Assembly (NCBI GenBank): GCA_016206685.1
Contig: JACQRB010000023.1
Span: 29,287 to 93,286, forward strand
From: Candidatus Omnitrophota bacterium
Lineage (GTDB): Bacteria; Omnitrophota; Gorgyraeia; Aquiviventales; Aquiviventaceae
Length of the DNA: 64,000 nt
Direction of reading: 5' to 3'
Position numbers and translations under genes: made by a program. The notes under the pieces are model-generated. The model did not search any database. It was not told where the DNA came from and worked only from the letters and a program-made list of their open reading frames with translations. Shown here piece by piece: positions 35,392 to 55,578 of this stretch (within the stretch, counting starts at the first letter, position 1; every line of letters begins with the position of its first letter).

Positions 35392-36332
35392 CAGATAAAA
35401 CGGTCGCGGTAATATTCCACGATCGCCTTGATTTCGTCATCGAAGCGCCGCGCGTTCTTCCATCCGAGCCGGCGCAGCCGCGTGTCGTCAAGCGAATAGC
35501 GCACGTCTTCCCCCATGCGCACGTAGTTGAATTGCACGTGGAGATTGAGCTTCACGCGCTTGCCGAAATAGCAGCGCAGGACTTTCTCGATGACCTCGCG
35601 GTTGGTGGCTTCGTAGTTCCCTGAGACGTTGTAGACGCGGTTGCGCTGGCCGCGCTCGAGGATGTGAAAGATGGCCGCCGCGGTGTCTTCAGCGTGCAGC
35701 CAATTGCGGACGTACAGCCCTTTGCCGTGCAGCGGAATCTTCTTGCGCAGCGACAGATACTTCACGGCCTTGGGGATGAGCTTCTCCGGATACTGGCCGA
35801 TCCCATAGTTGTTGGTGGGACGGATGATCAGGTAGGGCACATTGTGGGTGCGGTGCCATCCCAGAATCAGCATATCCGCGGAGGCCTTGCTGGCCGAGTA
35901 CGGGTTGCTGGGATGCAGCGGGTGCTCCTCGGTGTGCTTGCCGTCGAGCACGTCGCCGTACACCTCATCGGTGCTGACCTGCACCAGCAGCGGCATCTCG
36001 TAGTTCCGTTTGCCGCGGATCAGCTCCAGCAGGTTTTCCACGCCCATGATGTTCGCCCAGGAAAACCGGCTGCTGTCCACGATGCTGTTGTCCACATGGG
36101 TCTCGGCGGCGAAGTTGAAGACGGCGTCCACGTCGTAGAGGTGGTCCATCGTCACGATGTCGGCCTCGGTGAACTTGAACGACGCGGACTGGCGGAACTC
36201 ATCCAGCAGCTCGGGCCGGGCGGCGTAGGTCATCGTGTCGACGCCCCACACCTGCCATCCGCGCTGCAGGCAGGCCCGCGTGAAATGCGACCCCATGAAC
36301 CCGAGGCACCCGGTGACGCACACGACTCTCAT
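35388..36332 (-). CDS. rmlB-like: dTDP-glucose 4,6-dehydratase-like (RmlB-type extended SDR)
   Basis: MRVVCVTGCLGFMGSHF and PYSASKASADMLIL (RmlB YxxxK context), with VSTDEVYG. It has ATGA overlaps at both ends. Confidence 0.7.
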   Translation of the reverse strand: MRVVCVTGCLGFMGSHFTRACLQRGWQVWGVDTMTYAARPELLDEFRQSASFKFTEADIVTMDHLYDVDAVFNFAAETHVDNSIVDSSRFSWANIMGVENLLELIRGKRNYEMPLLVQVSTDEVYGDVLDGKHTEEHPLHPSNPYSASKASADMLILGWHRTHNVPYLIIRPTNNYGIGQYPEKLIPKAVKYLSLRKKIPLHGKGLYVRNWLHAEDTAAAIFHILERGQRNRVYNVSGNYEATNREVIEKVLRCYFGKRVKLNLHVQFNYVRMGEDVRYSLDDTRLRRLGWKNARRFDDEIKAIVEYYRDRFIW

Positions 36333-38323
36333 GGCCGACTGGCCTTTGTTGAGGGGGTGATGGATGATTCCGGCTCGATCACTTCGACGTGGGGAACCGG
36401 CACGATGAAGCCGTTAGTGTACCGCGCCGCGCGGCACCGCGCCATGATTTCCTGCCGGAAATTCCAGGCCAGCAGGAGCAGGTAGTCGACGCGGGCCTGT
36501 GCGAGGGCGTCGATGCCGGCGATCCGCATACGGGCGCCGGGCGTGTACCAGCCCCACTTCTTGGGATTGTCATCCACCGCCACCGGCACCATCTCGCGCG
36601 ACAGCTCGAAATAATTCATCAGGGTGTTGCCCTTGGCGCTGGCGCCGTAGGCCCAGATGGTTTTGCCCTCCTGGCGCAGGCGGCGCAGGACGCGCGTCAG
36701 GTCCTCCTTGCTCCGGCGCACCCGCTGGGCGAACGCCTCGTAGGGGGCCCGCCGCGTGATGCCGAAGGCCTGCTCGCGGGCCAGGTACTCGCCCACGGAG
36801 GGAGCCACCGGGTAATCCCGGCGGCGCGCCAGGCTCACGCGAATGGTTCCGCCGTGGAGCTGGCCGAAAAAGTCCACGTCAATGGCCTCCATGTCGTGCG
36901 CCTGCGCCAGGCGCTGCAGCGCGTGCACGCTCATGTACGAGAGGTGCTCGTGATAGGCGGTGTCGAACTCATTCTCTTCAATGAAGGGGATCACGTACGG
37001 GCATTCGATCACGCACAGCCCCCGGGGCGCCAGGCAGCGCTCGACCCCGACCAGAAACTCATGCACGTCGTCAACGTGGGCGATGACGTTCGTCGCCGTG
37101 ATGATCTTCGGCGGCGCGAAGCGGCTCATGATGTCTTTGGCCGTCGCCTGCGACCAGTAGGTGCACAGGGTGCGGATGCCGGAGGCGTTGGCTTCCGCGG
37201 CGAGATTCTCGGCCGGATCCACGCCGACGACGTTCATCCCGCGCTCCTGGAACCGCGCCAGCAGGCAGCCGTCATTGCTGGCGATGTCCAGCGCCCAGTC
37301 GCCCCGCGATGCCTGCGTGCGCCGGATGGCGGACTCGGCCAGCTCCGCGCAGTGGGAGCGAAAGGTTGCCGTCGTGGAGCTGACGTAGAGGTAATGGCGG
37401 AACATCAAATCGGGATTGACCACTTTCGTCAATTGCGACAGGCCGCACGTCTCGCACAGCTGAATGGCCAGCTCTTCCCTAAATTCGGGCTGCGGCAGGT
37501 CCTCCTCCCGCAGGTACGAATTGGCCAGCGGCGTGACGCCCAGGTCCAGGTACGTCCACAGCGACGAGGAGCCGCAGATGCGGCAGGCGGTCCTGGACAC
37601 CGACGGCGGCGCGTCGGTCCGCATGACCGTCTGAAGCTTGGTGGTGTCCAGCGAGCTGTCGCCGGGCAGCAGGTACGGCAGCTTGAAGTCCTTTCTGGTG
37701 CACGCCTCGACCGATGGATTCTGCTCGGCCTTGATGATCTCGTAGACCGAACGCTTCTGCTTGGCGCCGACGTTGATGATGCCCCGCAGGGTGGTCTTCA
37801 CCGCCAGGTGATGCACGGCCTTGGCCGCCTCCGCGACCGGAAGGCGCGAGGTGTACTGGTCGGTGCACGCCTTGGCAAACGGGATCGCCGCGTAGAACGA
37901 CGTGCGGATGATCAGCGTGTTGTCATGCTGCTGCGCGGCCATCTCGCCGCCCAGCTTGGATTCGGCGTACCGGTTGATCGGCCAGAGGACCGATTCCTCC
38001 GAATAGTCGCCCCGCTCTCCCGGATAGACGTAATCGGTGGACAGGTAGACCAGCCGCACGTCGTGCCGGAGGCACCACAGCGCCACGTTGGCGGTGCCGA
38101 TGATGTTGGCTTGCAGGTAGTCCGCCGGCGGGGCGTCGTGGTGCGTCTCGGCCGCCGCGTGGATGATGACATCGGGCCGGGCCGCCCCGCAGTACCGCTC
38201 AACGCTCTCATAGCGTGAGACGTCCAACGCGGACTTGGGCGGCGCGTCGATCGAGGGATCCAGCGCCACCAGCGCCTTTGCCAGGTTCCCTTGCCCTCCC
38301 GTCACCAGAATCTTTGGAGCCAT
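36329..38323 (-). CDS. bifunctional fusion: dTDP-4-dehydrorhamnose reductase-like (RmlD) N-terminal domain + NDP-hexose C-methyltransferase (TylC3/NovU-family) C-terminal domain
   Basis: The N-terminal MAPKILVTGGQGNLA...YAESK is RmlD-like. It is followed by CRICGSS...C-x-x-C (Methyltransf_13 zinc module), an MTase core (ALDIASNDG) and the C-methyltransferase C-terminal domain (YLLLLAWNFRQEI...FIVPVP). Confidence 0.7.
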   Translation of the reverse strand: MAPKILVTGGQGNLAKALVALDPSIDAPPKSALDVSRYESVERYCGAARPDVIIHAAAETHHDAPPADYLQANIIGTANVALWCLRHDVRLVYLSTDYVYPGERGDYSEESVLWPINRYAESKLGGEMAAQQHDNTLIIRTSFYAAIPFAKACTDQYTSRLPVAEAAKAVHHLAVKTTLRGIINVGAKQKRSVYEIIKAEQNPSVEACTRKDFKLPYLLPGDSSLDTTKLQTVMRTDAPPSVSRTACRICGSSSLWTYLDLGVTPLANSYLREEDLPQPEFREELAIQLCETCGLSQLTKVVNPDLMFRHYLYVSSTTATFRSHCAELAESAIRRTQASRGDWALDIASNDGCLLARFQERGMNVVGVDPAENLAAEANASGIRTLCTYWSQATAKDIMSRFAPPKIITATNVIAHVDDVHEFLVGVERCLAPRGLCVIECPYVIPFIEENEFDTAYHEHLSYMSVHALQRLAQAHDMEAIDVDFFGQLHGGTIRVSLARRRDYPVAPSVGEYLAREQAFGITRRAPYEAFAQRVRRSKEDLTRVLRRLRQEGKTIWAYGASAKGNTLMNYFELSREMVPVAVDDNPKKWGWYTPGARMRIAGIDALAQARVDYLLLLAWNFRQEIMARCRAARYTNGFIVPVPHVEVIEPESSITPSTKASRP

Positions 38324-38328
38324 GATCG

Positions 38329-38751
38329 CTATTTCGCCGGCCGCATCCAATCGAAGCCCATCGCCTCGATTGACATGCGTTCCTCGTCCTTCGGGTTGTA
38401 CTTGTTCGTAATCCAGTACAGGACGATCGCCGGCTTATCGGTGAAGTTGTAATGGCCGTGCCACATTCCCCGCGGAACGAACAGCGCTCCGTCCTTGGCG
38501 CTGCGCTCGGACGAATAGACCCATTCCACCGTGCCGCCCTGCGAGGCCGGCTTGTCGCACAGCCCGAATTTCAGCGCCCCCTTGATGCAGAGCTGGTAGT
38601 CGTCCTGCTGCTGATGGCGGTGCCAGGCCGACATGGCGCCCGGATAAATGACGACCACGTTGATGTCCCCCTGCGGAATTGGAAAGACGTCGCAATACCG
38701 CACCCCGCGGTCGTCTTCATGGAATCGAAGCGGATGTCGCCGAATCTGCAT
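38329..38751 (-). CDS. cupin-fold NDP-4-keto-6-deoxyhexose epimerase/ketoisomerase (RmlC/FdtA/WxcM-like)
   Basis: 140 aa small cupin. HRHQQQDDYQLCIKG has an H-x-H metal/active-site pair followed by a beta-barrel pattern. The size fits FdtA-type 3,4-ketoisomerases better than full-length RmlC. Confidence 0.5.
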   Translation of the reverse strand: MQIRRHPLRFHEDDRGVRYCDVFPIPQGDINVVVIYPGAMSAWHRHQQQDDYQLCIKGALKFGLCDKPASQGGTVEWVYSSERSAKDGALFVPRGMWHGHYNFTDKPAIVLYWITNKYNPKDEERMSIEAMGFDWMRPAK

Positions 38752-38769: not shown

Positions 38770-40608
38770 TCAGCCCGCTGACGAGGACCTCAGAGAGGCC
38801 GCCGGAGCGGACTTGCGTCGATAGATCGTGACCACAGGCCCCTGATGCCGTTGACGCCAGCCATTCACGACCGGCACGCGCTGAAGCCGCGCCACATCAC
38901 ATGTGTACATCACGGGAAATTCCTCATGAAAGCGCACGCCGGGATCGAAACGCGCCACCTCGATGTAGTCGCGTGCCAGGTAGTCCCGAAGCGCCAGGCG
39001 CGCTTGAAGAAACCCTGGCTTATGACAGGGCGGTGCTTCAATCCGGCGCGGCGACTCCTGGTCAAACAGATCCAGATCAAAATAGCCGCTCGTCACGACG
39101 TACTCAGGCCGCATCCGATCCAGCGCGTCCGGCGCAGCCGTGAAGACCTTGGTCAGCGCGAAGGCCGCGGCTGGCGGGTGGGCCTGTGCCAGCGCCAAAC
39201 GCATCTGCGCCAGCCGTCCAAGGCCGCCGCGTGCCTCGACCTGCATGAGTTCCTGCGCTAAGACGTCAGCCCGCCCTGGCAAGGTTGGTCCCAGCCACAT
39301 GTCCGCATAGCGGGCTCCCTCGACGACGATGTGCGCTCCCGACGGGACATTCGCCTGCACCCACGCACGGGCCAGCGTCCGGGTATCAGGACGCCGGGTG
39401 AGGGCAATCAGCCGGACGTCGTCAACCACGCTCGGCCAGAGGCACAGGCCCGCCAACCCCACCAAGCATACGCGGCGCGCCGGCGTCGGCGAGGAGAGGA
39501 ATGGCGCGGCGACCGTGACGAATCCGACAGCCGCGGTCAGCGCCACCACGGGGACCATCAACGCCAAATAGGTGGGCGACCCCAGGTAGGGCGACAGAAA
39601 GACCAGCAACGCGACCGGATAGGCCAGGAGAAAGACGCCGAGGCGGCGGTGCCGCCACAGCAGCACCGCGCTGCCAACCACCGCCAGGAGCGCCACCGGA
39701 GCGCCCACGACGCCAGGCAGATGCCACAACAGGCGCGTCACGGTCGGCGGAATGGGCTGGTGGAACTCCGCAAACCCGAAGGCCAGATCATGCACGCCGG
39801 CCAGCAGCAAGCGCCGGTCGAGCAGCAGCGAGGGCATCAACGCCACAAACGCCGCCAGGGTCCCTCCCAAGACGACGAGACTGCGCTGAGCCACCACCCG
39901 CCATCGCGCCGAGGGCCGCCCCGTTCCAGACGGCGCGGACCACCAGACCGCCAGCAGCACCGGCGCAAGACCGAGGACCGCCGTATATTTGAAGGCGCTG
40001 GCGGCTCCAATCCAGACCCCCGCCCAGAGCGCGAGCGACAGGGGTTTCATGCGACCGCCGGCCAATCCAGCCAGTTGAGCGGCGCACCCCAGAGCCGCCA
40101 ACACGCCGAACAGCGCGGGTAAGTCCTCTTTGAATCGCATCACCATGGTCAGCGGCAAGACGGACCAGCCGGTCCAGGCCGCGGCGATCAGCCCCACGAC
40201 GGGGGAACGGAGCCGGCAGCCGAGCCACCACGTCATCACGATCACTCCAAGACCTGAGACGAGAACGGTCAGGCGGCCGAGCAGAAAAAAGATCGTGGGA
40301 TCCCGCAGATACAGCCAGGCGAGATCTATCGGCGCCTGCATAGAGCCGAGGGCATGCTGCACGAGATAGAGGAGGCCGAATTCTACGACGAGCAGAATAG
40401 GAAGCCCCATGCCGTGCCGCAAGCCGAACGGCTGCAAGACGCCGCTGCCCATGCGGAGAGCGGTTTCAATGAAATTGACTTCGTCGCCGCCATGAAGGCG
40501 ATCCACCTGCGGTAATGCGCCGGCCAGATACAACGCCAACGCGACGATCAGGATGACGCCTAACCAGACCCGTTGGGCCCATCGGCTCGCGTGCTCGATT
40601 CCGGTCAT
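38770..40608 (-). CDS. GT-C fold membrane glycosyltransferase (GT39/ArnT-like), paralog 1
   Basis: 612 aa. It has approximately 11 N-terminal TM segments and a soluble C-terminal domain. It is paralogous to 40605..42356 and 53183..54859 (shared FTDPTLFFL / DPTIFFLLGR block). Confidence 0.7.
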   Translation of the reverse strand: MTGIEHASRWAQRVWLGVILIVALALYLAGALPQVDRLHGGDEVNFIETALRMGSGVLQPFGLRHGMGLPILLVVEFGLLYLVQHALGSMQAPIDLAWLYLRDPTIFFLLGRLTVLVSGLGVIVMTWWLGCRLRSPVVGLIAAAWTGWSVLPLTMVMRFKEDLPALFGVLAALGCAAQLAGLAGGRMKPLSLALWAGVWIGAASAFKYTAVLGLAPVLLAVWWSAPSGTGRPSARWRVVAQRSLVVLGGTLAAFVALMPSLLLDRRLLLAGVHDLAFGFAEFHQPIPPTVTRLLWHLPGVVGAPVALLAVVGSAVLLWRHRRLGVFLLAYPVALLVFLSPYLGSPTYLALMVPVVALTAAVGFVTVAAPFLSSPTPARRVCLVGLAGLCLWPSVVDDVRLIALTRRPDTRTLARAWVQANVPSGAHIVVEGARYADMWLGPTLPGRADVLAQELMQVEARGGLGRLAQMRLALAQAHPPAAAFALTKVFTAAPDALDRMRPEYVVTSGYFDLDLFDQESPRRIEAPPCHKPGFLQARLALRDYLARDYIEVARFDPGVRFHEEFPVMYTCDVARLQRVPVVNGWRQRHQGPVVTIYRRKSAPAASLRSSSAG

Positions 40609-42356
40609 GGCCGGGCCGCCAACTCATAAATCTGCAGGTACTCTTCTCTGGCGCGCATGAGCGGCACGATATCCACCCATGGTCCACGGAATTCCTGCAG
40701 GAGCCGGCAGTGTTGCCGAACCTGCTCGATGTAGCGCACCTGCGAGGGAAAATTGTGCGGCTCGGCCAGGTACTCGTCAACGCTGCTCTCCAGGATGAAA
40801 TACCGCACGCCCTCCTGCGCCTGGCCGGCGAAATCGAAATCTTCTGGATCGTACTCCCCCATGGAGGGAAACCGCAGGTAGATCACGTCGTAGGTCGCAG
40901 CAAACGCGGACTGGTGGCGCAGCAGGCGCCGGAGCCGCTCGCCGCGGCCCATCCGCTTGCGCTCGATCTCCTCCAGCTGCCGCTGGATGGACACCGCATT
41001 GGGCACGATCGGCAGGTCCGCCATCGTGACGATTTTTGTCCCGGCCGGCAGCGTCGCTTCGATCCAGGTTTTCGCCTGCGTGGCCGGCGGCAGTTGAGCC
41101 GCCCGGCCCAGGAAGGCCAGGCTCTTGGCCAGGGGCGCTGCGAACAGCACGGCGAAGACCGCGGTCACCGCGGCCCCGCGCCACCACGAGGGCCGCAGCG
41201 CGCGGACGACTCCCATGAGCCAATCCACGCCGAGCAGGATCATGAACGGAGCCACCTGGACGAAATACCGGGAGTTGATCAATTGCCACCGGCTCATGTA
41301 CACCAGGATGAACCCGATCATGCCCAGGAAGAGCAGGTCGCGGCGGCTGCGGCGGATCAGCGCATGGAGCACGCCGGCGATGCCCAGCACCGTCAGAGGC
41401 ATGCTCCACCCAAACGGCAGTGCGTCCATGAAGATGAACAACCAGCCGGGCTTCGTGATGCGGGAGCCCGGGGCGGTCAGGGCGCCGTACGCCACGGTGT
41501 CATACAGGAACTTCCAGTCCCGACTGAAACGCCGGATATCAACGATGGTGTACCAAGCCCCCAGCCCATAAGCCAGCCCCATGCAGGCCAGGGCCCCCCA
41601 GAGCCTGGGGTCCTGCCACCACCGCCGGGACTGCGGGCCGCGTGGCGCCAGGATGTGGGCGGTCAGCAGCGGAAACAGCATCAGCGCGCCGTCGTACTTG
41701 GCGGCCGTCGCCAACCCGCCGAGGAACCCGGCGGCCAAGTACTCGCGCCACCCGCCCCCGTCCTGAAAAATCCGCACCACGCACCATACCGACGCCATGA
41801 AGAGACAGAGCATGAACACGGTCGGCACCGCGTAGTGCGCCCAGCGGACCAGCTCGGGAGCACACGCCATCAGGGCCGTGGCAATCAGCGCGGTGCGCTC
41901 GTCAAACAGCCGGCGGGCGATCCGATGGAACAGCACGACGCTGCCCATCGCCATCAGCCACATGAAGGCGCGCGCAATCAGGTAGAACAGCGTGGGGTCG
42001 GTAAAATACAGTTGCTCAAACGCGGCCAGCGAGGGGATCCAGCCGAGCGCCCGTCCGATGACGTAGGCCGCCCCGTAGAAAACGAACAAGACATACGACA
42101 ATAACGGCGGATGGATGAAGAAATGCGGGTTCAGGTCGCCCGTGCCGCACTTCAGCGCCAGTTGGATGTGCTCCTGCTCGATGCCGAGCCGGCTGAACGG
42201 CAAATCTGCGGTCATGCCGTAGCCGAACAGCACGCCGGCGATGCCGAGCACGACCCAGCTCCAGGCGCGCAGGCGCGCAGACGATGCCACACTCGACGGT
42301 TGTCTCCTCACGGGCAGATCCTCTATGTTCTCGCCAGGATGACCAGCCCCAGACAA
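40605..42356 (-). CDS. GT-C fold membrane glycosyltransferase (GT39/ArnT-like), paralog 2
   Basis: DLPFSRLGIEQEHIQLALKCGTGDLNPHFFIHPP...FTDPTLFYLIAR...AAKYDG is closely similar to 53183..54859. It has an ATGA overlap with paralog 1. Confidence 0.75.
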   Translation of the reverse strand: MSGAGHPGENIEDLPVRRQPSSVASSARLRAWSWVVLGIAGVLFGYGMTADLPFSRLGIEQEHIQLALKCGTGDLNPHFFIHPPLLSYVLFVFYGAAYVIGRALGWIPSLAAFEQLYFTDPTLFYLIARAFMWLMAMGSVVLFHRIARRLFDERTALIATALMACAPELVRWAHYAVPTVFMLCLFMASVWCVVRIFQDGGGWREYLAAGFLGGLATAAKYDGALMLFPLLTAHILAPRGPQSRRWWQDPRLWGALACMGLAYGLGAWYTIVDIRRFSRDWKFLYDTVAYGALTAPGSRITKPGWLFIFMDALPFGWSMPLTVLGIAGVLHALIRRSRRDLLFLGMIGFILVYMSRWQLINSRYFVQVAPFMILLGVDWLMGVVRALRPSWWRGAAVTAVFAVLFAAPLAKSLAFLGRAAQLPPATQAKTWIEATLPAGTKIVTMADLPIVPNAVSIQRQLEEIERKRMGRGERLRRLLRHQSAFAATYDVIYLRFPSMGEYDPEDFDFAGQAQEGVRYFILESSVDEYLAEPHNFPSQVRYIEQVRQHCRLLQEFRGPWVDIVPLMRAREEYLQIYELAARP

Positions 42357-44845: not shown

Positions 44846-46104
44846 ATCTTTCCTCCCTTGCCGAAGAAATTCCAGACATCCACCACGGGCTTGCCCTTCG
44901 TATCAAGATTCCGGTACGCATCATGGGGGACGCACAGAATGAGCAGATCGCTCTTGGAGATGACGTCGTCCAACGGGACGATGTCCGGATCCCCCTGCAC
45001 AAACGGACTGGTGGTCAGCACGCGCTTCGCGTGGAACAACAGCGCCTTCTTCAACTTATAACTCAAGGAGGCCCGGGGGTCATCACTGTTGGCTTTGAAC
45101 GCCATCCCTAACAGCCCCACGGTCATGGTGGACAATCCATACTGTTTAGCCAGTTGCTGGACCACATAGAGGGGTAAGCCCTCATTGATCCACATGGCCA
45201 TACTGCCCAATTGAAACTGATTGTTGGAGAATCCGGTGAGCTGCATCGTGTCTTTGAAGAGGCAGGGCCCAGCCGCAAAGCCCGCGCCCGGCAGATCCCG
45301 CATCCGTGAATAATTGGCCTTCAGGCCCGCCAAGATGCGGTAATAGTCGAGACCGGCGGAGTTCGCGATCATGTAGAACTCGTTGGCCACGGCGAATTGG
45401 ATATAGCGATAGGCGTTGCAGAACAACTTGGCGAATTCAGCCTCCATCGGACGCAGGCGCACGATCAGAGGAGCGAGTTGTGAGAAAAACTCCGCGGCGC
45501 GATCTTCCGCGTCCTGAGTCGTCCCGCTGACAATCTGTGGAAGTTGCCGGAGCTCCTGGATCGCATAACCCTGGACGATCCGCTCAGGACAGAACGCCAA
45601 TTGAGGACGCTTCCCATGAGACCGGAGATACCGGTGCAGCCAGTCCGTGGTTCCTGGATAGACGGTGGAACGCAGGATGACCAGTTGATGATCGGACAGG
45701 CGGGGCAACAGCGGTTCAAACGCACGGATCATGCTTTTCAAGGCGGGGTTGAGGAACTCGTCAATGGGAGTCCCGATCGTCACGATGATGATGGGCACGC
45801 CGGCGAGATCGTCGGGATTGGTGGAGGAAAAAGACAGCCGTTTCTTGGCCAACGCGTCTTTCAGGAGCGGCCCGGCCCCGTGCTCCAGGAAGGGCATCGT
45901 CCCTCGCTTGATTCCATTGAGCGCGCGCCCATTCACATCGTACAGCAAGACCTGTTGTCCCTGACTGGCGAGGACGAGCGCCAGCGGCAACCCCACGTGC
46001 CCGGCCCCGCCGACGATGCACACGTCCGCGTGGCGACGACTTGCCGCACGCTGGGGCCGGCGTTGGCGCGACCCCGGCCGCGTCACGGGCTGAATGGTCG
46101 GCAT
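44842..46104 (-). CDS. nucleotide-sugar 6-dehydrogenase family (UDP-glucose/UDP-ManNAc/GDP-mannose dehydrogenase-like)
   Basis: VCIVGGAGHVGLPLA is the NAD-binding motif. The catalytic Cys context is GFAAGPCLFKD. The start is internal at MPTIQP. Confidence 0.75.
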   Translation of the reverse strand: MPTIQPVTRPGSRQRRPQRAASRRHADVCIVGGAGHVGLPLALVLASQGQQVLLYDVNGRALNGIKRGTMPFLEHGAGPLLKDALAKKRLSFSSTNPDDLAGVPIIIVTIGTPIDEFLNPALKSMIRAFEPLLPRLSDHQLVILRSTVYPGTTDWLHRYLRSHGKRPQLAFCPERIVQGYAIQELRQLPQIVSGTTQDAEDRAAEFFSQLAPLIVRLRPMEAEFAKLFCNAYRYIQFAVANEFYMIANSAGLDYYRILAGLKANYSRMRDLPGAGFAAGPCLFKDTMQLTGFSNNQFQLGSMAMWINEGLPLYVVQQLAKQYGLSTMTVGLLGMAFKANSDDPRASLSYKLKKALLFHAKRVLTTSPFVQGDPDIVPLDDVISKSDLLILCVPHDAYRNLDTKGKPVVDVWNFFGKGGKI

Positions 46105-46820
46105 GGCTTGATCCCTCGGGTGAGGACAAACGCCCGGTACGGCCTGACAAGGTGTGATGAGAATAAGAGGGCATCGAGCGCGTTGTAGACCGGCAGCGCC
46201 CATCGCAGGCTGGACGAGGCGATAGAGCGGTACTGCGCCATGCAGTAGTCCGTCGAGACGTCAAACCCTGCCGCAGCGAACACGCCGGCGATCTGCCGGG
46301 CGATGATCGGCCGCTCATTAGGCGTGACGCCGTTCTGGCTGTAGAACGGCGAGGTGGGGTCCCGGTAGAGCCACATGAACGGATTGCGCCGATTGGGGTC
46401 GAATGCGACAAAAACGCCGCCGGGCTTCAAGACCCGGAAGCATTCCCGCGCGAACAGCCGCGGGTCTGGCAGATGGTGGATGATTCCGCTCAGCAGCAAG
46501 CCGTCCATGGACTCGGTTCGCAGCGGCAGCGATTCCACATCGCCCACCATAAAAGCCACGTGCGGATTGTGCTGCCGGCCGACCGTGACGAGCGACTGGT
46601 TGAGATCCAGCCCGAGAGCCGTGAGCCCTTCCTCGCGCAACAACCGGGTGAACACGCCGGAACCGCACCCGAGATCGGCGACGCGCGCTCCGGGCGTGAG
46701 CCTGCTCAGGTCAATGCAGCGGCGGATCATCCGTCGGTTGCTCTTCTCGGTGAACACGTTGTATTCACCGCCTGAGGCGTATGCCGAAAAGCACGCGACT
46801 TCCTTCGCTTTATCCTGCAT
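46083..46820 (-). CDS. class I SAM-dependent methyltransferase
   Basis: VADLGCGSGVFT (motif I) and VLKPGGVFVAFD are present. Confidence 0.7.
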   Translation of the reverse strand: MQDKAKEVACFSAYASGGEYNVFTEKSNRRMIRRCIDLSRLTPGARVADLGCGSGVFTRLLREEGLTALGLDLNQSLVTVGRQHNPHVAFMVGDVESLPLRTESMDGLLLSGIIHHLPDPRLFARECFRVLKPGGVFVAFDPNRRNPFMWLYRDPTSPFYSQNGVTPNERPIIARQIAGVFAAAGFDVSTDYCMAQYRSIASSSLRWALPVYNALDALLFSSHLVRPYRAFVLTRGIKPCRPFSP

Positions 46821-47613
46821 GGCACGAGCTCGCCTGGCGAGCGGAAGCCGCGGCCTCATGCGGGGTCGGCGCCCCTTTCGCGTCCGTCCTCAGCGCCACG
46901 GAAGCCGCCGTGCGCCGCGCGTACGTCGTGGCGAATGCGTAGCCGTACCAGCGCAGGTACGCGGGCAGCCACCGGATGACTTGGAACCGGCTCGCTCCTG
47001 TGGGACGGGCAAACCACGCCGCCGGGACTTCACCGACCTTCCACCTCAGCCGATGGCACTTGACCAGCAATTCGATGCTGTAGGTAAACCCTTGGGTGGA
47101 TTCAATCGCAATCGTCTCGAGGACGCGGCGCGAAAAGAGCCGCAGGCCGTTGCTGGCGTCACGCGTCGGCACACCGGCCAGGTGGTATAACGTGAAGGCC
47201 GAGACGCGCACGAGGAGATCTTTGAGCCAGGGACAACCGACCATTCGTCCCCCAGGCATCAACCGGCTGGCCGACACGATCCGGCAGCCGGCCTCACACT
47301 GTTGGACCATCTGATCAATGATCCCCGCGTTATAGGTATCATCGGCAGGATACACCAACACCGCGGGTGCGGCACTCGCCTCAAAACCCGACAGCACCGC
47401 CGCGTGCGGACCGACCCCGCGATTTTTGACGAGGAGCACATCACCGTCCGGGTGCGGAGCCTCGCGTAACGCCGCCAGCGTGGTATCGCCGTCGTGGTCG
47501 TAGCAGATGAGCACGCGAAACGACGTCCGCACCCCGCGGCGCAACGAGTCCAACACCGCCAGGATGCCGCGACCTTCATTGTAGACTGGGATCACGATAT
47601 CCAGCCGGGTCAT
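46810..47613 (-). CDS. GT2 glycosyltransferase (DPM1-like polyprenol-phosphate sugar synthase)
   Basis: LDIVIPVYNEGRGI...VLICYDHDGDTT...YPADDTYN are GT2 motifs. Confidence 0.7.
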   Translation of the reverse strand: MTRLDIVIPVYNEGRGILAVLDSLRRGVRTSFRVLICYDHDGDTTLAALREAPHPDGDVLLVKNRGVGPHAAVLSGFEASAAPAVLVYPADDTYNAGIIDQMVQQCEAGCRIVSASRLMPGGRMVGCPWLKDLLVRVSAFTLYHLAGVPTRDASNGLRLFSRRVLETIAIESTQGFTYSIELLVKCHRLRWKVGEVPAAWFARPTGASRFQVIRWLPAYLRWYGYAFATTYARRTAASVALRTDAKGAPTPHEAAASARQASSCHAG

Positions 47614-48893
47614 CCGACCTCCTCGTTGCGCAGGATGCGCGGGACCGGCAACGGGATGATGAAATCGCCTCGGTACCCCTTCTGCTTCAGTTTTGGCATG
47701 AGCTCATCGGCGATGTGCCACGACAACAGCAAGGCGTAGTCGGGTGGTTCTTGAAACAACCGCGATTCTTCCACAACCGGAATCAGCGTTCCCGGGATAT
47801 ACTTGCCGATTTTGCGCGAGCCGTTGATTTCTAGCACACAGTCCAAGATCCCATCATCGAGCCCCACGTAATTGATCAGGGTGCTGGCGCGGGAGGGCGC
47901 GCTGATCCCATAGATCCGCTGCCCTCGGCGTTTGATTTCATGGAGCAACGCATAGAGGGCTAACTTAGAGTGGATGATCCGATCCCTGAACGCGCGCAGC
48001 TGCTGGGTATTGAGCTCCGTGCGTTCCTCGGCTTCGAGCATCGCCATGACGCTCGGCTGCACCTGGTACCGACCGGGTCGAGCGGCGTAGACGCGAATCG
48101 ATCCGCCGTGGGTGGGAATCCGCTTCGCGTGGATGATCGACAGGCCGTGCATGTCGAAGAGCGATTTAAGGCTCGCGAGGGAATAGTACCGTAGATGCTC
48201 ATGATAGATCGTGTCGTACTGAAGCGTTTCGACCAAGGACAGGAGATAGTGGGATTCGGAGACAAACACCCCATCGTCACTCAACAACGAAAGGATGCTG
48301 TCCACAATGTCGTGGATATCTTCAATGTGCGCGAACACGTTGGTGGCGGTCACCAGTTTCGACGGACCCCGCTCAGCGCGGACTTTGGCCGCAGTCTCTC
48401 GATTGAAGAAGGTGATCAGGGTCGGGATCCCGCGCGCATTCGCCAGTTCGCCGACATTGGCCGGCTCAATGCCCTGCACGGGATGATGTGGGGTGAAATT
48501 ACTCAGCAACGTCCCATCGTTCGAGCCAATATCCGTCACCAGGTCCTCTGGCCCCAGGGTGATGAGCCGTCGGCATTCCTGGTAGAGTTCCGCGAAGTTG
48601 TCCCGCAAAATTTTCGTCGTCCCACTGGTATAGGGGTAGTCTGGGGGAAAGAGAATCGTGGGGTCGACGATCAACCCCAGTTGAACGAGCTGGCAGTGAG
48701 GACACCGCAACAGATGCGCCGGGTAGCTGGGTTGCTCCTGCGGAGGCCGCCCAATGGGCGGCATGAGATTCACCGGAGGCAGGTAGCCGAGAAACACGAT
48801 TGGTTCGAGGCCGGGACCGTCACACACCTGGCATCGCTCTACCACGACGCTGGAACCCGTTTGAATGGTCAAGGGCATGGTCATGAGTCGCAC
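47610..48893 (-). CDS. NDP-hexose C-methyltransferase (TylC3/NovU/EvaC family), stand-alone
   Basis: CQVCDG...CPHCQLVQL is a zinc-ribbon Methyltransf_13 module, followed by the MTase core (VTDIGSNDGTLL) and the C-methyltransferase C-terminal domain (YALLLSWHIADEL...FIIPLPVP). It has an ATGA overlap at 47610-47613. Confidence 0.75.
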   Translation of the reverse strand: MRLMTMPLTIQTGSSVVVERCQVCDGPGLEPIVFLGYLPPVNLMPPIGRPPQEQPSYPAHLLRCPHCQLVQLGLIVDPTILFPPDYPYTSGTTKILRDNFAELYQECRRLITLGPEDLVTDIGSNDGTLLSNFTPHHPVQGIEPANVGELANARGIPTLITFFNRETAAKVRAERGPSKLVTATNVFAHIEDIHDIVDSILSLLSDDGVFVSESHYLLSLVETLQYDTIYHEHLRYYSLASLKSLFDMHGLSIIHAKRIPTHGGSIRVYAARPGRYQVQPSVMAMLEAEERTELNTQQLRAFRDRIIHSKLALYALLHEIKRRGQRIYGISAPSRASTLINYVGLDDGILDCVLEINGSRKIGKYIPGTLIPVVEESRLFQEPPDYALLLSWHIADELMPKLKQKGYRGDFIIPLPVPRILRNEEVG

Positions 48894-49890: not shown

Positions 49891-51201
49891 TCACTCCGAT
49901 GGCGGCGCGGCAAACCGCTGCAGCTCGATCATGAGCAACGCGGCGAAGACGGCGCCCACCGCGGGCAGCGAATACATCTGGAGGCCCAGCGCCACATCCC
50001 GGGCCGGCAGGCCGGTGATCGCCGCCCAGAATCTCATCGGCACCAAGAACCCGCTCATCACGACCGCCGCGACGAAGGCGCCTTTCACCATCCAGCTCAA
50101 TGCGTACCGGTACCGGAGCACAGAGCCCACGCCCAGCGACAGCGCGGGAAGCACAAAGATGAGATAGTAGGTGTTCGCATGCGGCGCGACCAGGATCATC
50201 ATGGTCATCAGGAGCGCCCCGTCGAGCTCCAGGGTATCCTGCCGGCGCCGGCGCCAGAGCAGCCATCCCGTTCCCAGCACTACCAGCAGGTGAAGCGACA
50301 ATCCGATCATCCGCAACAGCGGCGCCTGCCAGACTCGAGGGTCCGGATCAGCGAGATTGCCGAGGGTGAACATCTTATAGAGCACGTTCACGATGGCCTG
50401 ATTGGCGGGGGCCGCCGGATAGGAAATACTCTGAATGGCTTCATCCGAGATCAGCGTGAACGTGATCGAATGTTCCACTCCCAGCAGCCCCACCGCGACG
50501 GCCGCAAACACCCCGACGACCGCGATCGCGCTCCAGAACGCCTTCCGATACCCCTTCATCCAGAGGTACGGAATAAGAACGACCGGCAAATATTTGATCA
50601 TGGCGGCCAGCCCGATCAGGCCGCCGGCCAGGCGCTGCCGGCCGGCGCGCAACCCCCAGATCCCGACCGTCACCAGAAACAGCTCGAGGATCTCGCTCTC
50701 CCGCCCGACCACAGCCGTCAGGAGCGGGAAATAGTTCAGCCAGACCACGGCGATCCAAAACAGCACGATGGCGCGCGGCTCGATGCGCCAGGCCATCCGC
50801 AGCCAGAGCCAGCCGGTAACCGCGAGAAGGACGTAGCTGATGCCGAGCCAGATGAGCATCGCCTGCTCCAGCGAAGAGGCGAAGACCAAGGGCAGCGTGA
50901 TCACATGGAGCGCGGGTCCAAAATTCCAGAGGGTTTTTGGCACGATCCAGGGTTTCGCAAGGACTGGCCAGAGCACCGTCATGCGGTGCAGGAGCGGGCC
51001 GGGGAATGCCGAGATGGTGTCGCCGCCAAGAATCTTCAACGCCCCGATCACCCCACTCTGCACGAAATGGACGACCGAATAGACGGCAAGAATTGTGACG
51101 GCCACCGGAGGTCCGAATTGCCTGAGCCGGGCACTAGATAGCTTCATGATATCAGGTGAGGACTCCGACAGATGAGGCCGGCGGCTGCGAGACTGTGGCA
51201 A
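49891..51201 (-). CDS. GT87/DUF2029-family polytopic membrane glycosyltransferase, copy 1
   Basis: 436 aa with approximately 12 hydrophobic segments, paralogous to 51152..52444. This resembles the DUF2029 (mycobacterial PimE/MptA-type GT-C) architecture. Confidence 0.55.
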   Translation of the reverse strand: MPQSRSRRPHLSESSPDIMKLSSARLRQFGPPVAVTILAVYSVVHFVQSGVIGALKILGGDTISAFPGPLLHRMTVLWPVLAKPWIVPKTLWNFGPALHVITLPLVFASSLEQAMLIWLGISYVLLAVTGWLWLRMAWRIEPRAIVLFWIAVVWLNYFPLLTAVVGRESEILELFLVTVGIWGLRAGRQRLAGGLIGLAAMIKYLPVVLIPYLWMKGYRKAFWSAIAVVGVFAAVAVGLLGVEHSITFTLISDEAIQSISYPAAPANQAIVNVLYKMFTLGNLADPDPRVWQAPLLRMIGLSLHLLVVLGTGWLLWRRRRQDTLELDGALLMTMMILVAPHANTYYLIFVLPALSLGVGSVLRYRYALSWMVKGAFVAAVVMSGFLVPMRFWAAITGLPARDVALGLQMYSLPAVGAVFAALLMIELQRFAAPPSE

Positions 51202-52444
51202 AAGCCGCGGCCTGGCGTTCCTGCCGCCACGTCACCGTCCACGCGATAATGAACACCACATAGCCCAGCGTCGGGATCCCATAGTAGAGATAGGCCCGGG
51301 AGTTGAGCACGCCGGGAATGACCGACGGCAGCTGATTGATAATCCCCAAGGGGACACCTTGTCCGACCAACAGATAGGAAACAACTCCCGACCAACATGC
51401 CGCCGAGTTGAACCGGGAGCCGCGTTGCCACCACAGGCCCGCCAAGAGCAGGTAGCCCGGCAGCAAGAAGACCGCGTAGTAATCCCGCGACATAGGACTC
51501 AACAGCAGCATCCCGGCGCTCACGATCGACCATTCAGCCCACAGCCGTTGGGGCGATGCGTCACGGCGGCGCGCCAGTAAGACCGCCAGCCACCCGGCCG
51601 CCAGGAAACGCAATACCCACCCCATCCACAGGCCTTCAAGGCGCACCTGATGCAATGGGACATGGAACTCGTTGGGGCGGATCGGATGCCACCACCGCAC
51701 CGCGACGCCGAGGAGCGACTGATCTTCATACCAATAGAAGGCATTGTCCCCCCGGGGCTGGATCACGGTGCTGAAATACGCTCCCACCGCTTCAAAGCCG
51801 AAGACAAGACCACTCACCAGGAGGATTGCCGCCACACTGACCGCCCAAGCCCGCACGAGGCGCCAGCGGCGCGTCCAGATGAAATACAGCGCGAACAACA
51901 CCGGCAATGGCTTGAGCATTCCGGCCAGTGCCGCCAGGCTGCCAGCCAGCCGGTCGCGGCCGCGCTGCACGGCCAGCATCGCGCCAACCAGCAGCGTCAC
52001 TTCGGCCATTTCAATTTTGGCCATGGAGACCAAGAGCAGCAGCGGCCGGAAGTTCAGCGCCAATGGCAGCAACAGCCACCACCAGGCGCGGCCCGGAATC
52101 CGAGCGGCGGTCGCGGCCATTAACAGCCCCAGGCACACCACCAACAGCGCATGGTTGATCGCCAGCATCACCAGTGCCGCGGTCTGATCATCGAACCACA
52201 GCGCCAACGGGCTGTTCACCAGAAAAAAGAACGGCGGATACCAGTACCCGACGTTGAACTGCCCCGTGACCAACCATTCCCGCGTCACGTTCATGAGGAG
52301 GAGGTAATCGGAGTAGCTCCGGTAGCCGACGGCGGCGTGGAGAAAATGGGCCACCGTATAGACCCATAGCACGACGACGCCCGATACCAGCAACGGATGT
52401 CGTCGCCACCACGCCGTGGCGGTGTCAGCCATTGGCGACCTCAT
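51152..52444 (-). CDS. GT87/DUF2029-family polytopic membrane glycosyltransferase, copy 2
   Basis: 430 aa polytopic. A strong RBS GGAGGAGGA lies about 10 nt upstream of the ATG at 52444. Confidence 0.55.
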   Translation of the reverse strand: MRSPMADTATAWWRRHPLLVSGVVVLWVYTVAHFLHAAVGYRSYSDYLLLMNVTREWLVTGQFNVGYWYPPFFFLVNSPLALWFDDQTAALVMLAINHALLVVCLGLLMAATAARIPGRAWWWLLLPLALNFRPLLLLVSMAKIEMAEVTLLVGAMLAVQRGRDRLAGSLAALAGMLKPLPVLFALYFIWTRRWRLVRAWAVSVAAILLVSGLVFGFEAVGAYFSTVIQPRGDNAFYWYEDQSLLGVAVRWWHPIRPNEFHVPLHQVRLEGLWMGWVLRFLAAGWLAVLLARRRDASPQRLWAEWSIVSAGMLLLSPMSRDYYAVFLLPGYLLLAGLWWQRGSRFNSAACWSGVVSYLLVGQGVPLGIINQLPSVIPGVLNSRAYLYYGIPTLGYVVFIIAWTVTWRQERQAAAFATVSQPPASSVGVLT

Positions 52445-52463
52445 AGATCTTCACATCCTCCTC
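52441..52463. repeat. direct repeat copy B (tcatagatcttcacatcctcctc), a fossil of a GT-C gene 3' tail
   Basis: 21 of 23 nt are identical to 53196..53218. On the minus strand it encodes ...EEDVKIYEV, mirroring the ...EEYVKIYEL C-terminus of the GT-C gene at 53183. It overlaps the start codon of the GT87 gene. Confidence 0.6.
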
Positions 52464-52487
52464 CACTGCATCAATCGCCACATCCCC

Positions 52488-53186
52488 CTACCTCTCCTGG
52501 GGGATGCTTGCAGGCAACCGGACAGGAGCCTGTGCCACCATCACCAGATAATCACAGGCACCGCTTGACATGGGATAGCATCTCACTTGATCAAAGACAG
52601 CCTGGACTATGTGGACGTAGTGTTGCTCAGCTCGAATATGGTCACCCAGATCGAATTGATGAACCAGACTGCCAATAAGATTGTATCTGCTGCGCGTCGG
52701 TACATCTTCCCACATGATCAAACGACCTATGCCAGGTTTCAGAACCCGCGCGGCTTCAGTCAAAATGGCTATCGCATCCTGATCTTCAAGGTGGTGGATG
52801 ACCCCGCTAATCACCACCGCATCAAACGATTGTGATGTAAAATCCAGTGCTCGCCCATCCATGACGAGAAAGCGATGAGTGGGGTGTTTCTTTCTTGCTC
52901 GCTTGATATACCCCTGGTTGATATCGATGCCCACATAAGAAGTCGGCCTGAACATGTTGGCGAACACCCCAGTCCCACAACCAAGATCCAGGACATCCCC
53001 AATATGCTGCAGTCCCTCTTGCTTCAGCACAATCCGCTCGCCATTAAAACCAGCTTCCAGAATCCAACGCAGCATATCAAATAAAACAGGACGAGCCGCA
53101 AGCCTGCTGACGAGGGACTGAAGGAGAAGCTTCATAATCTGTGGAGACTCGGCAGCATCTGTGTGAGATCCCCTCGGTTCAGTCAT
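52488..53186 (-). CDS. class I SAM-dependent methyltransferase (compositionally atypical, probably inserted)
   Basis: VLDLGCGTGVFA (motif I) and VLKPGIGRLIM are present. Third codon positions are visibly AT-richer than in all neighbours. The gene is flanked by the 23-nt imperfect direct repeat. Confidence 0.7.
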   Translation of the reverse strand: MTEPRGSHTDAAESPQIMKLLLQSLVSRLAARPVLFDMLRWILEAGFNGERIVLKQEGLQHIGDVLDLGCGTGVFANMFRPTSYVGIDINQGYIKRARKKHPTHRFLVMDGRALDFTSQSFDAVVISGVIHHLEDQDAIAILTEAARVLKPGIGRLIMWEDVPTRSRYNLIGSLVHQFDLGDHIRAEQHYVHIVQAVFDQVRCYPMSSGACDYLVMVAQAPVRLPASIPQER

Positions 53187-54859
53187 CCTACGAGTTCATA
53201 GATCTTTACATACTCCTCGGTGCCGAGTCCCGGGTCCACATCCGGCCGTTGCCCGCGGAACTCCTGCACCAGCCGACCGGTGTCCCTCACCGCGGTGTAG
53301 TATTGCGCGTGGACCGGATACCGCGCGGGGTCGGCCAGGTACTGTTCCACTTCATCGGTGACCACCACATACCGGACGCCCGCCTGACGATGTTTCGCAA
53401 AGTCAAGATCATCAGGATCAAAATCCTCCCGCCAGGGGTATGGCAGGGGCCACAGATCATAGGCGGCCGGAAGGGACGGGACATACCGCGCCAACCGCTG
53501 CAGGCGAATGCCCTGCCCGATCCCTTTGGCGTGAATCTCTTCGAGCTGCCGATGGATGGACGCCTCGTTGGGCACCAGCGGAACTCCGGCCGCCACGGCC
53601 ACCGGCGTCCCCGAAGGCACATGGCGCTGGATCCATGCGCAGGCTCGAACCGACACCGGCGTCTGAGCCACCTGACGGTCAAACCGGACAATCGCCTGAA
53701 CCGGCAGAGCCACCAACAGGGCCCATCCCGCTGTCATCGCCGTCACGCGGAGAGGGCCCGCCCGAAGCCGGTCGGCGAGCGCGACGCACCAGCGAGCCGC
53801 CACGAGCAGCAACATGGGCACGATGTAGATGAAATACCGCGGCTTGATGATGTCCCAGGTCCCCACATAGCCGATGAAGGTCAGCACCAGACCTGCCAGC
53901 CAGAGGTCTTCGGGCCGGCGTTTCCAGAGGGCGTACGCCAGCCCGATGAGCGAGACGACCGTCAGCGGCGCTCCAATCGCGCTGGGCAGCACCGATGTGA
54001 GGAGGAACCAGTGTCCAGATCCCTGGGCCCGGTACGACGCGAAATGGTACTCGGAGGTCATGAGTTCCCATCGGAGTTTCTGGACGGAGGCCAGGAACGC
54101 CTTCCCATCCAGCAGCGCATAGGGACACCCGAGGAAGAACCCGACGATGATGAGCCCCATCCCGGCCACCAGCTTCGGGGCGAACAGCCGCTCCCGCCAC
54201 GGGGCTCCTGCGCGGGACGTCCGGATCAGGTGCGCCAACCCCAGCACCACGCCGAGCCAAGCGGCGTTGTATTTCGTCGCCGTCGCCAGCCCGATGAGCA
54301 GTCCGGCGAGCCCATAGTGCCACAGCCGTCCCTCCTGGAGCACGCGGACGACCGTCCCAAGCGCCAGGAAGGCAAGCACCATCATCGGAATGTCGGTGTT
54401 GGCGTAGTGCGCCGCCGTCACATGCAGCACCGACACGCTGAGAAACGCCGTCGCCAGCAGCGCGATCGCCGTCCGGTGATAGAGCTGATGGGCCAGCCGG
54501 AAGAACAGCCAGAGTCCCAGCAGCCCCAACCCCAGCACGAAGATCCGACCGATGAGAAAGAACAGCGTCGGGTCCGTGAAAAACAGCCGCTCAAAATCCG
54601 CCACGGACGCAAACACGCCGGCCGCACGGCCGATCATGAACGTCGCCCCATAGAGCCCGAACAGCACATAGGCGAAGAACGGCGGATGCAGAAAGTAGTG
54701 CGGGTTGAGGTCGCCGGTGCCGAACTTCACCGCGTAGAACACCTGCTCTTCTTCGGTCGCGAACCGGCTGAACGGCAGATCGGCCCGCATGCCGTAGGCC
54801 GCGGCCGCGGCGAAGAGGCCCAGCATGCCCGCCAGCGCCCATCGTTGCGCGTGCATCAT
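53183..54859 (-). CDS. GT-C fold membrane glycosyltransferase (GT39/ArnT-like), paralog 3
   Basis: DLPFSRFATEEEQVFYAVKFGTGDLNPHYFLHPP...FTDPTLFFLIGR...ATKYNAAW is paralogous to 40605..42356. It has ATGA overlaps at 53183-53186 and 54856-54859. Confidence 0.75.
   Translation of the reverse strand: MMHAQRWALAGMLGLFAAAAAYGMRADLPFSRFATEEEQVFYAVKFGTGDLNPHYFLHPPFFAYVLFGLYGATFMIGRAAGVFASVADFERLFFTDPTLFFLIGRIFVLGLGLLGLWLFFRLAHQLYHRTAIALLATAFLSVSVLHVTAAHYANTDIPMMVLAFLALGTVVRVLQEGRLWHYGLAGLLIGLATATKYNAAWLGVVLGLAHLIRTSRAGAPWRERLFAPKLVAGMGLIIVGFFLGCPYALLDGKAFLASVQKLRWELMTSEYHFASYRAQGSGHWFLLTSVLPSAIGAPLTVVSLIGLAYALWKRRPEDLWLAGLVLTFIGYVGTWDIIKPRYFIYIVPMLLLVAARWCVALADRLRAGPLRVTAMTAGWALLVALPVQAIVRFDRQVAQTPVSVRACAWIQRHVPSGTPVAVAAGVPLVPNEASIHRQLEEIHAKGIGQGIRLQRLARYVPSLPAAYDLWPLPYPWREDFDPDDLDFAKHRQAGVRYVVVTDEVEQYLADPARYPVHAQYYTAVRDTGRLVQEFRGQRPDVDPGLGTEEYVKIYELVG
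53196..53218. repeat. direct repeat copy A (tcatagatctttacatactcctc) inside the 3' end of GT-C paralog 3
   Basis: Pairs with 52441..52463, with mismatches at 2 of 23 positions. Confidence 0.6.
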
Positions 54860-55578
54860 CCGCCGTTGCCCATCCGCAGTTCGCGCCAGAGGAATTTCAG
54901 AAAGACGATCCCCGTCGGCAGCGACTTCGCCGTGCTCATGCCGCCGATCCGGTCGCTTTCCTGCGTGGGCAGTTCGACGACGCGCATCCGCTGTTTCATC
55001 GCGCGGATCGACATCTGGTACTCGACCACGAAGCCGTCGGCGTCGATACCCATCCCTTCAAATGCCGCCTTCGTCACCCCGCGGTAGCCGTTGATCGTGT
55101 CGGTGACGTACGGACCGCGGTTCCACAACCGGTTGGCGATCCAAGTGAAGGCGCGGTTGGCCCAGGCCCGCAGGGGCAACCGCTTGTCGTCTTCTTCATT
55201 GCGGCTGCCGGGCAGGAAGCGCGAGGCGATGGCCATGTCGTAGCCCTCCTCCAGCTTCGCAAAGAGCCGCACAATGTCGTTCGGGTCTTCGTTCCCATCG
55301 GGGCTGAAGAAGACGAGGTGCTCCCCCTGCGCCGTCGCGACGCCGATTTGAAACGCCTGGCCGCGCCCGCGCCGGCTCTGCCCGACGACGCTGATCCCTC
55401 GGCGGGCCAGAAACTCCACCGTGCCGTCGGTGGACCCGCCGTCCACCGCGAAACATTCATCCACTTCAGCAAGCGGCAACCGGTCGAGCAGCACCTTTAG
55501 CCCGCTGATCTCGTTCAGGGTGAGCAAAATGAGAGAGCGTTTAGCGACGCGCCGTGGAGCTGAGACAGTGGGATTCAT
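54856..55578 (-). CDS. GT2 glycosyltransferase (DPM1-like polyprenol-phosphate sugar synthase)
   Basis: LILLTLNE...FAVDGGSTDGT...FSPDGNEDP are GT2 motifs. Confidence 0.65.
   Translation of the reverse strand: MNPTVSAPRRVAKRSLILLTLNEISGLKVLLDRLPLAEVDECFAVDGGSTDGTVEFLARRGISVVGQSRRGRGQAFQIGVATAQGEHLVFFSPDGNEDPNDIVRLFAKLEEGYDMAIASRFLPGSRNEEDDKRLPLRAWANRAFTWIANRLWNRGPYVTDTINGYRGVTKAAFEGMGIDADGFVVEYQMSIRAMKQRMRVVELPTQESDRIGGMSTAKSLPTGIVFLKFLWRELRMGNGG

Follow-up and report, generated by a model that had tools for sequence, protein, structure and literature searches.

How does a methyltransferase gene of atypical base composition come to lie between two glycosyltransferase genes, bracketed by two near-identical copies of the last codons of one of them? 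The question is raised by a stretch of 64,000 nucleotides (64 kb; hereafter the window) of contig JACQRB010000023.1 from a Candidatus Omnitrophota bacterium, which holds a large polysaccharide/glycoconjugate biosynthesis operon on its minus strand. Our analysis suggests that a foreign methyltransferase (MTase) was probably spliced into the overlap between a GT-C and a GT87 glycosyltransferase gene by recombination at a short box in the tail of the GT-C gene, and that a fossil of the old tail was left behind. The genes between 51152 and 54859 are all on the minus strand and are, according to Pfam, all ordinary glycan enzymes:

53183..54859, minus strand: GT-C fold glycosyltransferase (PMT_2 / GT39-like), 558 amino acids (aa), PF13231 with E=1.3e-10
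52488..53186, minus strand: class I S-adenosylmethionine (SAM) methyltransferase, the MTase, 232 aa, Methyltransf_25 and Methyltransf_11 with E=1e-20 to 1e-22
51152..52432, minus strand: GT87 glycosyltransferase, 426 aa from the ATG at 52432, PF09594 with E=5e-30

A preliminary description of this locus had placed an imperfect direct repeat of 23 nucleotides (nt) on either side of the MTase, and the repeat is where it was said to be: tcatagatctttacatactcctc at 53196-53218 and tcatagatcttcacatcctcctc at 52441-52463 agree at 21 of 23 positions. With two mismatches or fewer, the window contains the 23-mer nowhere else, two such matches arose in none of 100 dinucleotide-preserving shuffles, and none is expected by chance. 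A repeat search lengthened the repeat to 28 nt (53191-53218 against 52436-52463, 24/28 identical), and a scan of about 128,000 positions on both strands found no other position scoring above 20/28 to this 28-nt box. The box has the consensus GAGGAG-N-ATCTATGA, and the elements built on it are the following:

53191..53218, minus strand: copy A of the 28-nt box, encoding EEYVKIYEL(V) in the live GT-C tail
52425..52463, minus strand: relic B, 12 codons and the stop of a GT-C tail (EEDVKIYEVANG followed by a stop), with its repeat part at 52436-52463
52463..52490, minus strand: copy C, a degenerate box-like stretch, in frame (stop followed by GDVAIDAV), 19/28 to copy B
53188..53199, minus strand: a four-codon stub, ATG AAC TCG TAG, read from the sequence and opened by the ATG embedded in copy A

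Besides copies A and C, two positions score at least 19/28 to copy B, both of them with 20/28, and one of these is the true tail of a GT-C paralogue. The geometry is that of X, 28 nt, an insert of 727 nt (53190..52464), 28 nt again and Y, the homology between A and B stopping at the left joint (53191) and beginning at the right one (52463). Copy A contains GAGGAG and the embedded ATG at 53199-53197; the stub that this ATG opens stops 1 nt ahead of the MTase ATG and is the remnant of a start site which, in relatives, is used by the gene downstream. Copy C lies directly upstream of copy B and includes the TAG stop of the MTase.

What copy B represents becomes apparent when it is read as protein. 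On the minus strand it continues as GAG GAG GAT GTG AAG ATC TAT GAG GTC GCC AAT GGC TGA, which is EEDVKIYEVANG and a stop, and the live GT-C gene ends in VDPGLGTEEYVKIYELVG and a stop, i.e. EEYVKIYELVG. GT-C orthologues all end in (E/D)E(Y)(V/I)x(I/V)YE and a few further residues, as the following tails illustrate:

P0002: ...EEYVLIYELRNS
P0003: ...EEYVLIYDVGSS
P0004: ...EEYVLIYEFRTG
P0006 (contig L005): ...DEYIKIYEVANG and a stop, i.e. KIYEVANG-stop, the same end as relic B

On contig L005, GT-C (955-2631) and a GT87 gene (2624-3847) share 8 nt, ATGGCTGA, no other gene intervening, and the end of relic B (52442-52425, GAGGTCGCCAATGGCTGA) is identical to this junction at 18 of 18 nt. The same 18 nt carry a Shine-Dalgarno-like GAGG and the ATG of GT87, and the GT87 of the window is itself closest to the one of L005 (61%). 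Because relic B ends in KIYEVANG and a stop, matches the L005 junction and precedes a GT87 whose closest counterpart is that of L005, copy B is a genuine fossil of a GT-C tail, still in its ancestral position against GT87. The proposal of the preliminary description that copy B is a relic of the GT-C gene is thereby borne out, and the arrangement that it had proposed to look for in relatives, a GT-C tail directly abutting GT87 without an MTase, is found in the distant relative L005. In all related loci examined, box-like sequences are restricted to GT-C tails, so that the extra copy is specific to this lineage. The fossil is probably about 39 nt long, with at most an GGATGTGG 8-mer to be added from a gapped alignment: a comparison of 52464-52560 with the 120 nt before the box in six GT-C genes detected no relic further upstream (p=0.34-0.98 against shuffles).

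Whether the MTase is the newcomer can be asked of the relatives, in which the gene that follows GT-C varies:

L002, L006 and L018: GT2
L001: probably GT2, only the first 25 codons being on the contig
L005: GT87
the window: MTase

This MTase was found in the slot in none of the five related lineages. Homologues of it do exist elsewhere, in L008 (72% aa, 78% nt, in a different context), L009 (65%), L026 (65%) and L028 (57%), where they stand in glycan clusters after a C-methyltransferase, an epimerase or a GT2 gene and never after GT-C. Nucleotide homology between the MTase and its L008 counterpart spans 53188 to 52525. An origin of the MTase as a rearranged copy of the methyltransferases that relatives carry (MT228 in L005, MT307 in L002) was also considered and rejected, no BLASTP similarity being found at E<1e-5.

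The second line of evidence is compositional. The MTase had been described as visibly AT-richer than its neighbours, and it is: its GC content is 0.514 and its GC content at third codon positions (GC3) 0.524, against 0.792±0.053 in the 47 other genes of the window (z = -5.0), the lowest of which has a GC3 of 0.65. The per-gene GC3 and codon check that the preliminary description had proposed thus places the MTase outside the distribution of the locus, and its leave-one-out codon-usage score is also the lowest of 48 genes (z = -4.1). A two-change-point scan delimits the anomaly:

52540..53214: low-GC block of highest likelihood, with a GC of 0.496 against 0.642 outside it

If 2 log-likelihood units are allowed, its upper edge lies between 53203 and 53231, inside copy A, and the lower one between 52502 and 52580, inside the 3' end of the MTase. 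As a compositional outlier that is missing at this position in the relatives found, the MTase is an addition to the GT-C/GT87 slot in this lineage, in keeping with the insertion event first suggested.

The added gene is in working order. It is intact, its open reading frame (ORF) is of full length with the glycine-rich SAM-binding motif VLDLGCGTG, its profile scores exceed the curated thresholds (79.7 bits for PF13649, cut-off 27; 73 bits for PF08241), and the ratio of nonsynonymous to synonymous substitution rates (dN/dS) against L008 is 0.29; this is the picture expected of a working gene under purifying selection. Among NCBIfam equivalogs, none reaches its cut-off for the MTase, and it is from its context that the enzyme is most likely a glycan methyltransferase.

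The reading of both junctions depends on where the genes start. The MTase ATG and the GT-C stop overlap as ATGA. Homology with L008, in protein and in DNA, begins at the ATG at 53186 (MTEP.. against MAEP..), and this overlap is supported because it is at the MTase ATG that the homology starts. The public annotation of the MTase (P0058, 215 aa) begins at an internal Met at 53135; its start is probably 17 codons too short, the true one being at 53186. In L008, the MTase homologue starts with the same ATGGCTGA overlap on the stop of the gene before it.

For GT87, the preliminary description had taken the ATG embedded in copy B (52444) as the start codon. This ATG is in frame, is the first of the ORF and would add MRSP to the protein, and the idea was not unreasonable, since GT2 is called from the corresponding ATG, within ATC TAT GAx, in L002, L006 and apparently L001. 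Orthologues and the NCBI protein point instead to 52432 as the probable start: the NCBI record (P0126) has 426 aa, which fits 52432, the L005 orthologue begins with MAD, likewise at ATGGCTGA, and the ATG at 52432 overlaps the relic's own stop as ATGGCTGA. A GAGG lies 6 nt upstream of this ATG, and GGAGGAGGA lies 12 nt upstream of the one at 52444. Depending on the start, the gap between MTase and GT87 measures 43 nt (from 52444) or 55 nt (from 52432), and a search of it for promoter-like and terminator-like sites was negative.

The history that these observations suggest would begin with an ancestor in which GT-C ended in KIYEVANG-stop and overlapped the first codons of GT87 by 8 nt (ATGGCTGA), as it does in L005. 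Exactly in this overlap, as the comparisons show, a segment of about 730 nt that carries a glycan-type MTase from a source of lower GC became fixed. Viable recombinants would have been those that kept the old tail downstream, because it holds the ribosome-binding site and the start codon of GT87, and a complete GT-C C-terminus upstream. As both neighbours need the overlap sequence, two copies of the tail box would result, A live in GT-C and B as a fossil leader of GT87. The most likely route is recombination with DNA of a related glycan cluster, with a crossover in the tail box or at its edge; the box would have been the last patch of homology before gene content differs, and the other end would have been joined illegitimately. 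Homology-facilitated illegitimate recombination, or the single-crossover integration of a circularised fragment with a GT-C-type tail of its own, may serve as examples. The MTase is now translationally coupled to GT-C through the ATGA overlap, and most likely methylates a sugar of the glycan made by the cluster and so alters the structure of the surface. In such an exchange, copy A may be an allelic tail that came in with the insert, because it differs from copy B at 4 of 28 positions, has rare A-ending codons (two GTA codons, with a host usage of 2%, plus GAA and GGA, the codon usage of copy B being host-like) and contains the GC change point. Under allelic import, the in-frame GDVAIDAV ahead of copy B could be donor coding sequence.

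A number of observations weigh against this account. The closest MTase homologue (L008, 1506-2240) also has a low GC3, 0.61 against 0.71-0.84 in its neighbours, so part of the low GC of the MTase could be a property of the gene family and not a sign of recent arrival. Gene tails are AT-shifted in this genome in general (GC3 of the last 10 codons 0.69±0.15), and the GT-C tail, with a GC3 of 0.40, is just the third lowest of 47; codon usage, taken by itself as proof that copy A is foreign, was downgraded for this reason, and the compositional case for a donor-derived copy A is weak. A and B are moreover each other's nearest relatives, with 24/28 in the box as against 19-22/28 to other lineages. 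In the contexts of five homologues, no donor with GT-C followed by MTase was found, and no close sister with an empty site is on record; the GT-C of L005, where the ancestral junction is preserved, is just 62% identical in amino acids to that of the window. Finally, the origin of copy C has no place in this history. It could be a decayed tandem copy, a donor-derived tail or the remnant of a ...PDVD... segment. The last is suggested by the GGATGTGG 8-mer, found at a similar distance upstream of A in a gapped alignment, the stretch being alignable in this alternative way to the region upstream of copy A.

The empty site expected in a sister would read ...GAGGAG[T/G]ATGT[A/G]AAGATCTATGAGGTCGCCAATGGCTGACACC. 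Exact-protein look-ups of GT87 and of the annotated MTase returned only contigs with the same arrangement as the window (a single one in the case of GT87), the full-length MTase ORF from the ATG at 53186 has no exact record, and scans of genome contigs and metagenome contigs gave no relative closer than those compared.

Several of the same observations bear on the origin of copy A in another way. The preliminary description had written of a recombination that duplicated the junction; the repeat and the insertion stand, and a duplication in place is one of the two options that are left for the way in which the repeat arose. It would mean that the MTase fragment alone entered the overlap, that a staggered break with fill-in or a template switch copied the 28 nt again, and that the copies came to differ at 4/28 positions afterwards, through mutation or through the same gene conversion as made GT-C mosaic. 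We hold this to be possible, although unlikely. The geometry of the joints is exactly that of a target duplication, the box sequences of A and B are closest to each other and have in common a Lys codon, AAG, at a position that encodes Leu in L001, L002 and L006, and the continuation of A, GAACTC, matches GAGCTC in the L001 tail and would belong to the GT-C lineage and not to the donor of the MTase. The sequence that precedes the MTase start in L008 may also offer a microhomology, ACTC, and GT-C has clearly been overwritten by later recombination. Against this, the insert still lies 0.27 below the host in GC3, and for such an insert a divergence of 14% between the copies is high. Three of the differences specific to A are synonymous changes to A/T (TAT, GTA, GAA) in a genome with a GC3 of 0.79, and 28 nt far exceeds any target duplication of the transposase type.

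Since the slot after GT-C holds GT2, GT87 or MTase in different lineages, the box, which is a C-terminal coding segment, a Shine-Dalgarno sequence and the next gene's start codon at once, might be a recurrent, quasi-site-specific docking point at which this clade swaps glycan-modifying genes. Cassettes would then excise and integrate between copies of the box, and copy C would have been left as a scar by a previous round; we consider this quite improbable. Still less credence can be given to an MTase that is ancestral at this position, GC-poor for reasons of its own, and lost or replaced in the relatives, with copy B stemming from an older rearrangement. The low GC of the L008 homologue relative to its neighbours, and the slight deficit that the L009 homologue shows in the same comparison, would fit it, and they may reflect a family that is intrinsically GC-poor or one that has repeatedly been transferred into GC-rich hosts. 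It is, however, hard to reconcile with the five relatives that lack this MTase in the slot, with a relic that joins GT87 as seamlessly as in L005 and with the sharp edges of the low-GC block, which coincide with those of the insert. That copy B is an initiation leader (Shine-Dalgarno GGAGG and ATG) resembling the box by chance or convergence, or that a mobile element or chimera is involved, is the least probable of all: the box does hold GAGGAG together with an ATG serving as a start in relatives, and the family motif alone brings the paralogue tail to 20/28, but 12 in-frame codons and a stop, the KIYEVANG end of P0006, the 18/18 match to L005 and the 0/100 shuffles contradict a leader, as the lack of inverted repeats and of Rfam or plasmid matches and the agreement of two assemblies contradict an element or a chimera.

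The assemblies in question are two independent Logan assemblies from different runs (L024 and L025), which span both junctions with 99.97% identity to the window and rule out an assembly chimera. No inverted repeats flank 52436-53218, and Rfam, plasmid (blastn) and tandem repeat (TRF) searches gave no match. An insertion sequence (IS) or transposon was rejected: the MTase is the sole gene of the insert, there is neither a transposase nor a pair of inverted repeats, and the repeat is 23-28 nt long and imperfect. An integron cassette was rejected as well, no attC-like palindrome being present in 52425-52490 or 53187-53218 and the neighbours being glycan enzymes, with the remaining window not screened for an integrase.

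The GT-C gene upstream of the insert has a mosaic history of its own. Its protein (PF13231 score 42.2 bits, cut-off 26.1) is 100% identical to P0001, which NCBI names 'glycosyltransferase family 39 protein', and in a sliding window its nucleotide identity to L001 is 94-100% over about 1.2 kb, as against 70-75% in the adjacent GT2. The jump in identity to L001 falls exactly at the GT2/GT-C boundary (about 53680-54860 for the similar part), identity drops to 65-68% in the last 300 nt of GT-C, and a separate block (about 53900-54440) matches L002 at 93-97%. The pattern points to recent exchange between lineages confined to the GT-C gene, and shows that recombination is common at this locus. The tail itself follows a wider rule: a motif ...x(V/I)Y(E/R)(L/V) occurs in the closest homologues and in many distant ones among the 57 found, and the EEYVxIYEL box can be taken as its local version. 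In distant GT-C homologues (P0012-P0057), a C-terminal motif RPGP-x3-4-(V/I)Y(R/E)L was seen near the stop across the family. In this GT39-like family, the last residues of the protein seem to form a conserved structural element.

Taken as a whole, the operon includes a flippase, sugar-nucleotide enzymes, GT2, GT-C, two GT87 genes and C-methyltransferases, and the following was noted in it and beside the genes discussed:

40605-42356, minus strand: second GT-C (PMT_2) paralogue, ending EEYLQIYELAARP and a stop, with the same tail motif; its tail (40619-40646) agrees with the box at 20/28 nt
38770-40608, minus strand: 612-aa protein with no Pfam match, its start overlapped (ATGA) by the stop of the paralogue
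36329-38350, minus strand: 673-aa fusion of an RmlD/epimerase-like N-terminal domain and a complete C-methyltransferase (Methyltransf_13/23/14)
47610-48893: stand-alone C-methyltransferase
46083-46859: another class I methyltransferase
53141-55087, plus strand: 648-aa ORF antisense to GT-C, with an Arg/Pro/His-rich low-complexity translation and a GC3 that is low against GC1

The cluster is unusually rich in methyltransferases. The antisense ORF looks like a high-GC shadow ORF and not a gene.

Taken together, the locus is a small and unusually legible record of the diversification of a surface-glycan cluster in uncultivated bacteria, in which the insertion point can be read to the nucleotide and the ancestral arrangement is preserved in a relative. 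It also marks out GT-C as a hotspot at which lineages have recently exchanged sequence, and offers guidance for annotation, with the MTase probably starting at 53186 and GT87 at 52432.

Among known systems, the target duplications of insertion sequences and transposons and the cassettes of integrons are similar in that in them, too, direct repeats bracket a gene of foreign composition; here, unlike there, the repeat is coding sequence of the neighbouring gene. A transposon would be recognised by a transposase or terminal inverted repeats and by a short exact duplication (2-14 bp). Another parallel is homology-facilitated illegitimate recombination, which in naturally transformable bacteria reportedly combines a one-sided homologous anchor with a joint at microhomology (de Vries & Wackernagel 2002; Prudhomme et al. 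2002). In both cases foreign DNA adjoins a stretch homologous to the recipient, here the 3' end of GT-C with its box, and the other joint is made without homology. Classic events of this type replace or delete the recipient DNA between anchor and joint, whereas 28-39 nt were kept here, which gives the duplication; such a mechanism may have operated at this locus.

The O-antigen clusters of Salmonella and Yersinia pseudotuberculosis provide the remaining comparison. Descriptions of O-antigen and O-polysaccharide clusters report modifying genes that were imported and have an atypical composition, junctions that retain remnants of displaced genes, and recombination whose junctions, homologous or not, fall within genes (PMC5399914; PMC3715488). 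In Y. pseudotuberculosis, the abe gene has been described as an import from another species, with a tyv remnant beside it. The present cluster is similarly a mosaic glycan cluster in which an acquired modifying gene stands beside the remnant of a displaced one, with junctions inside genes and with one homologous and one non-homologous end. It differs in its host, which is an uncultivated groundwater-type metagenome-assembled genome (Candidatus Omnitrophica according to NCBI), in being built on GT-C and GT87 and not on Wzy and GT-A/B types, and in the size of the remnant, which is just 39 nt and survives because the next gene takes its ribosome-binding site and start codon from it, so that the scar shows up as a direct repeat on either side of the insert. 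The locus is, accordingly, an ordinary recombination scar of a mosaic glycan cluster and no new kind of system, slightly unusual in that the remnant forms a direct repeat because the interrupted site was a gene overlap that both neighbours needed.

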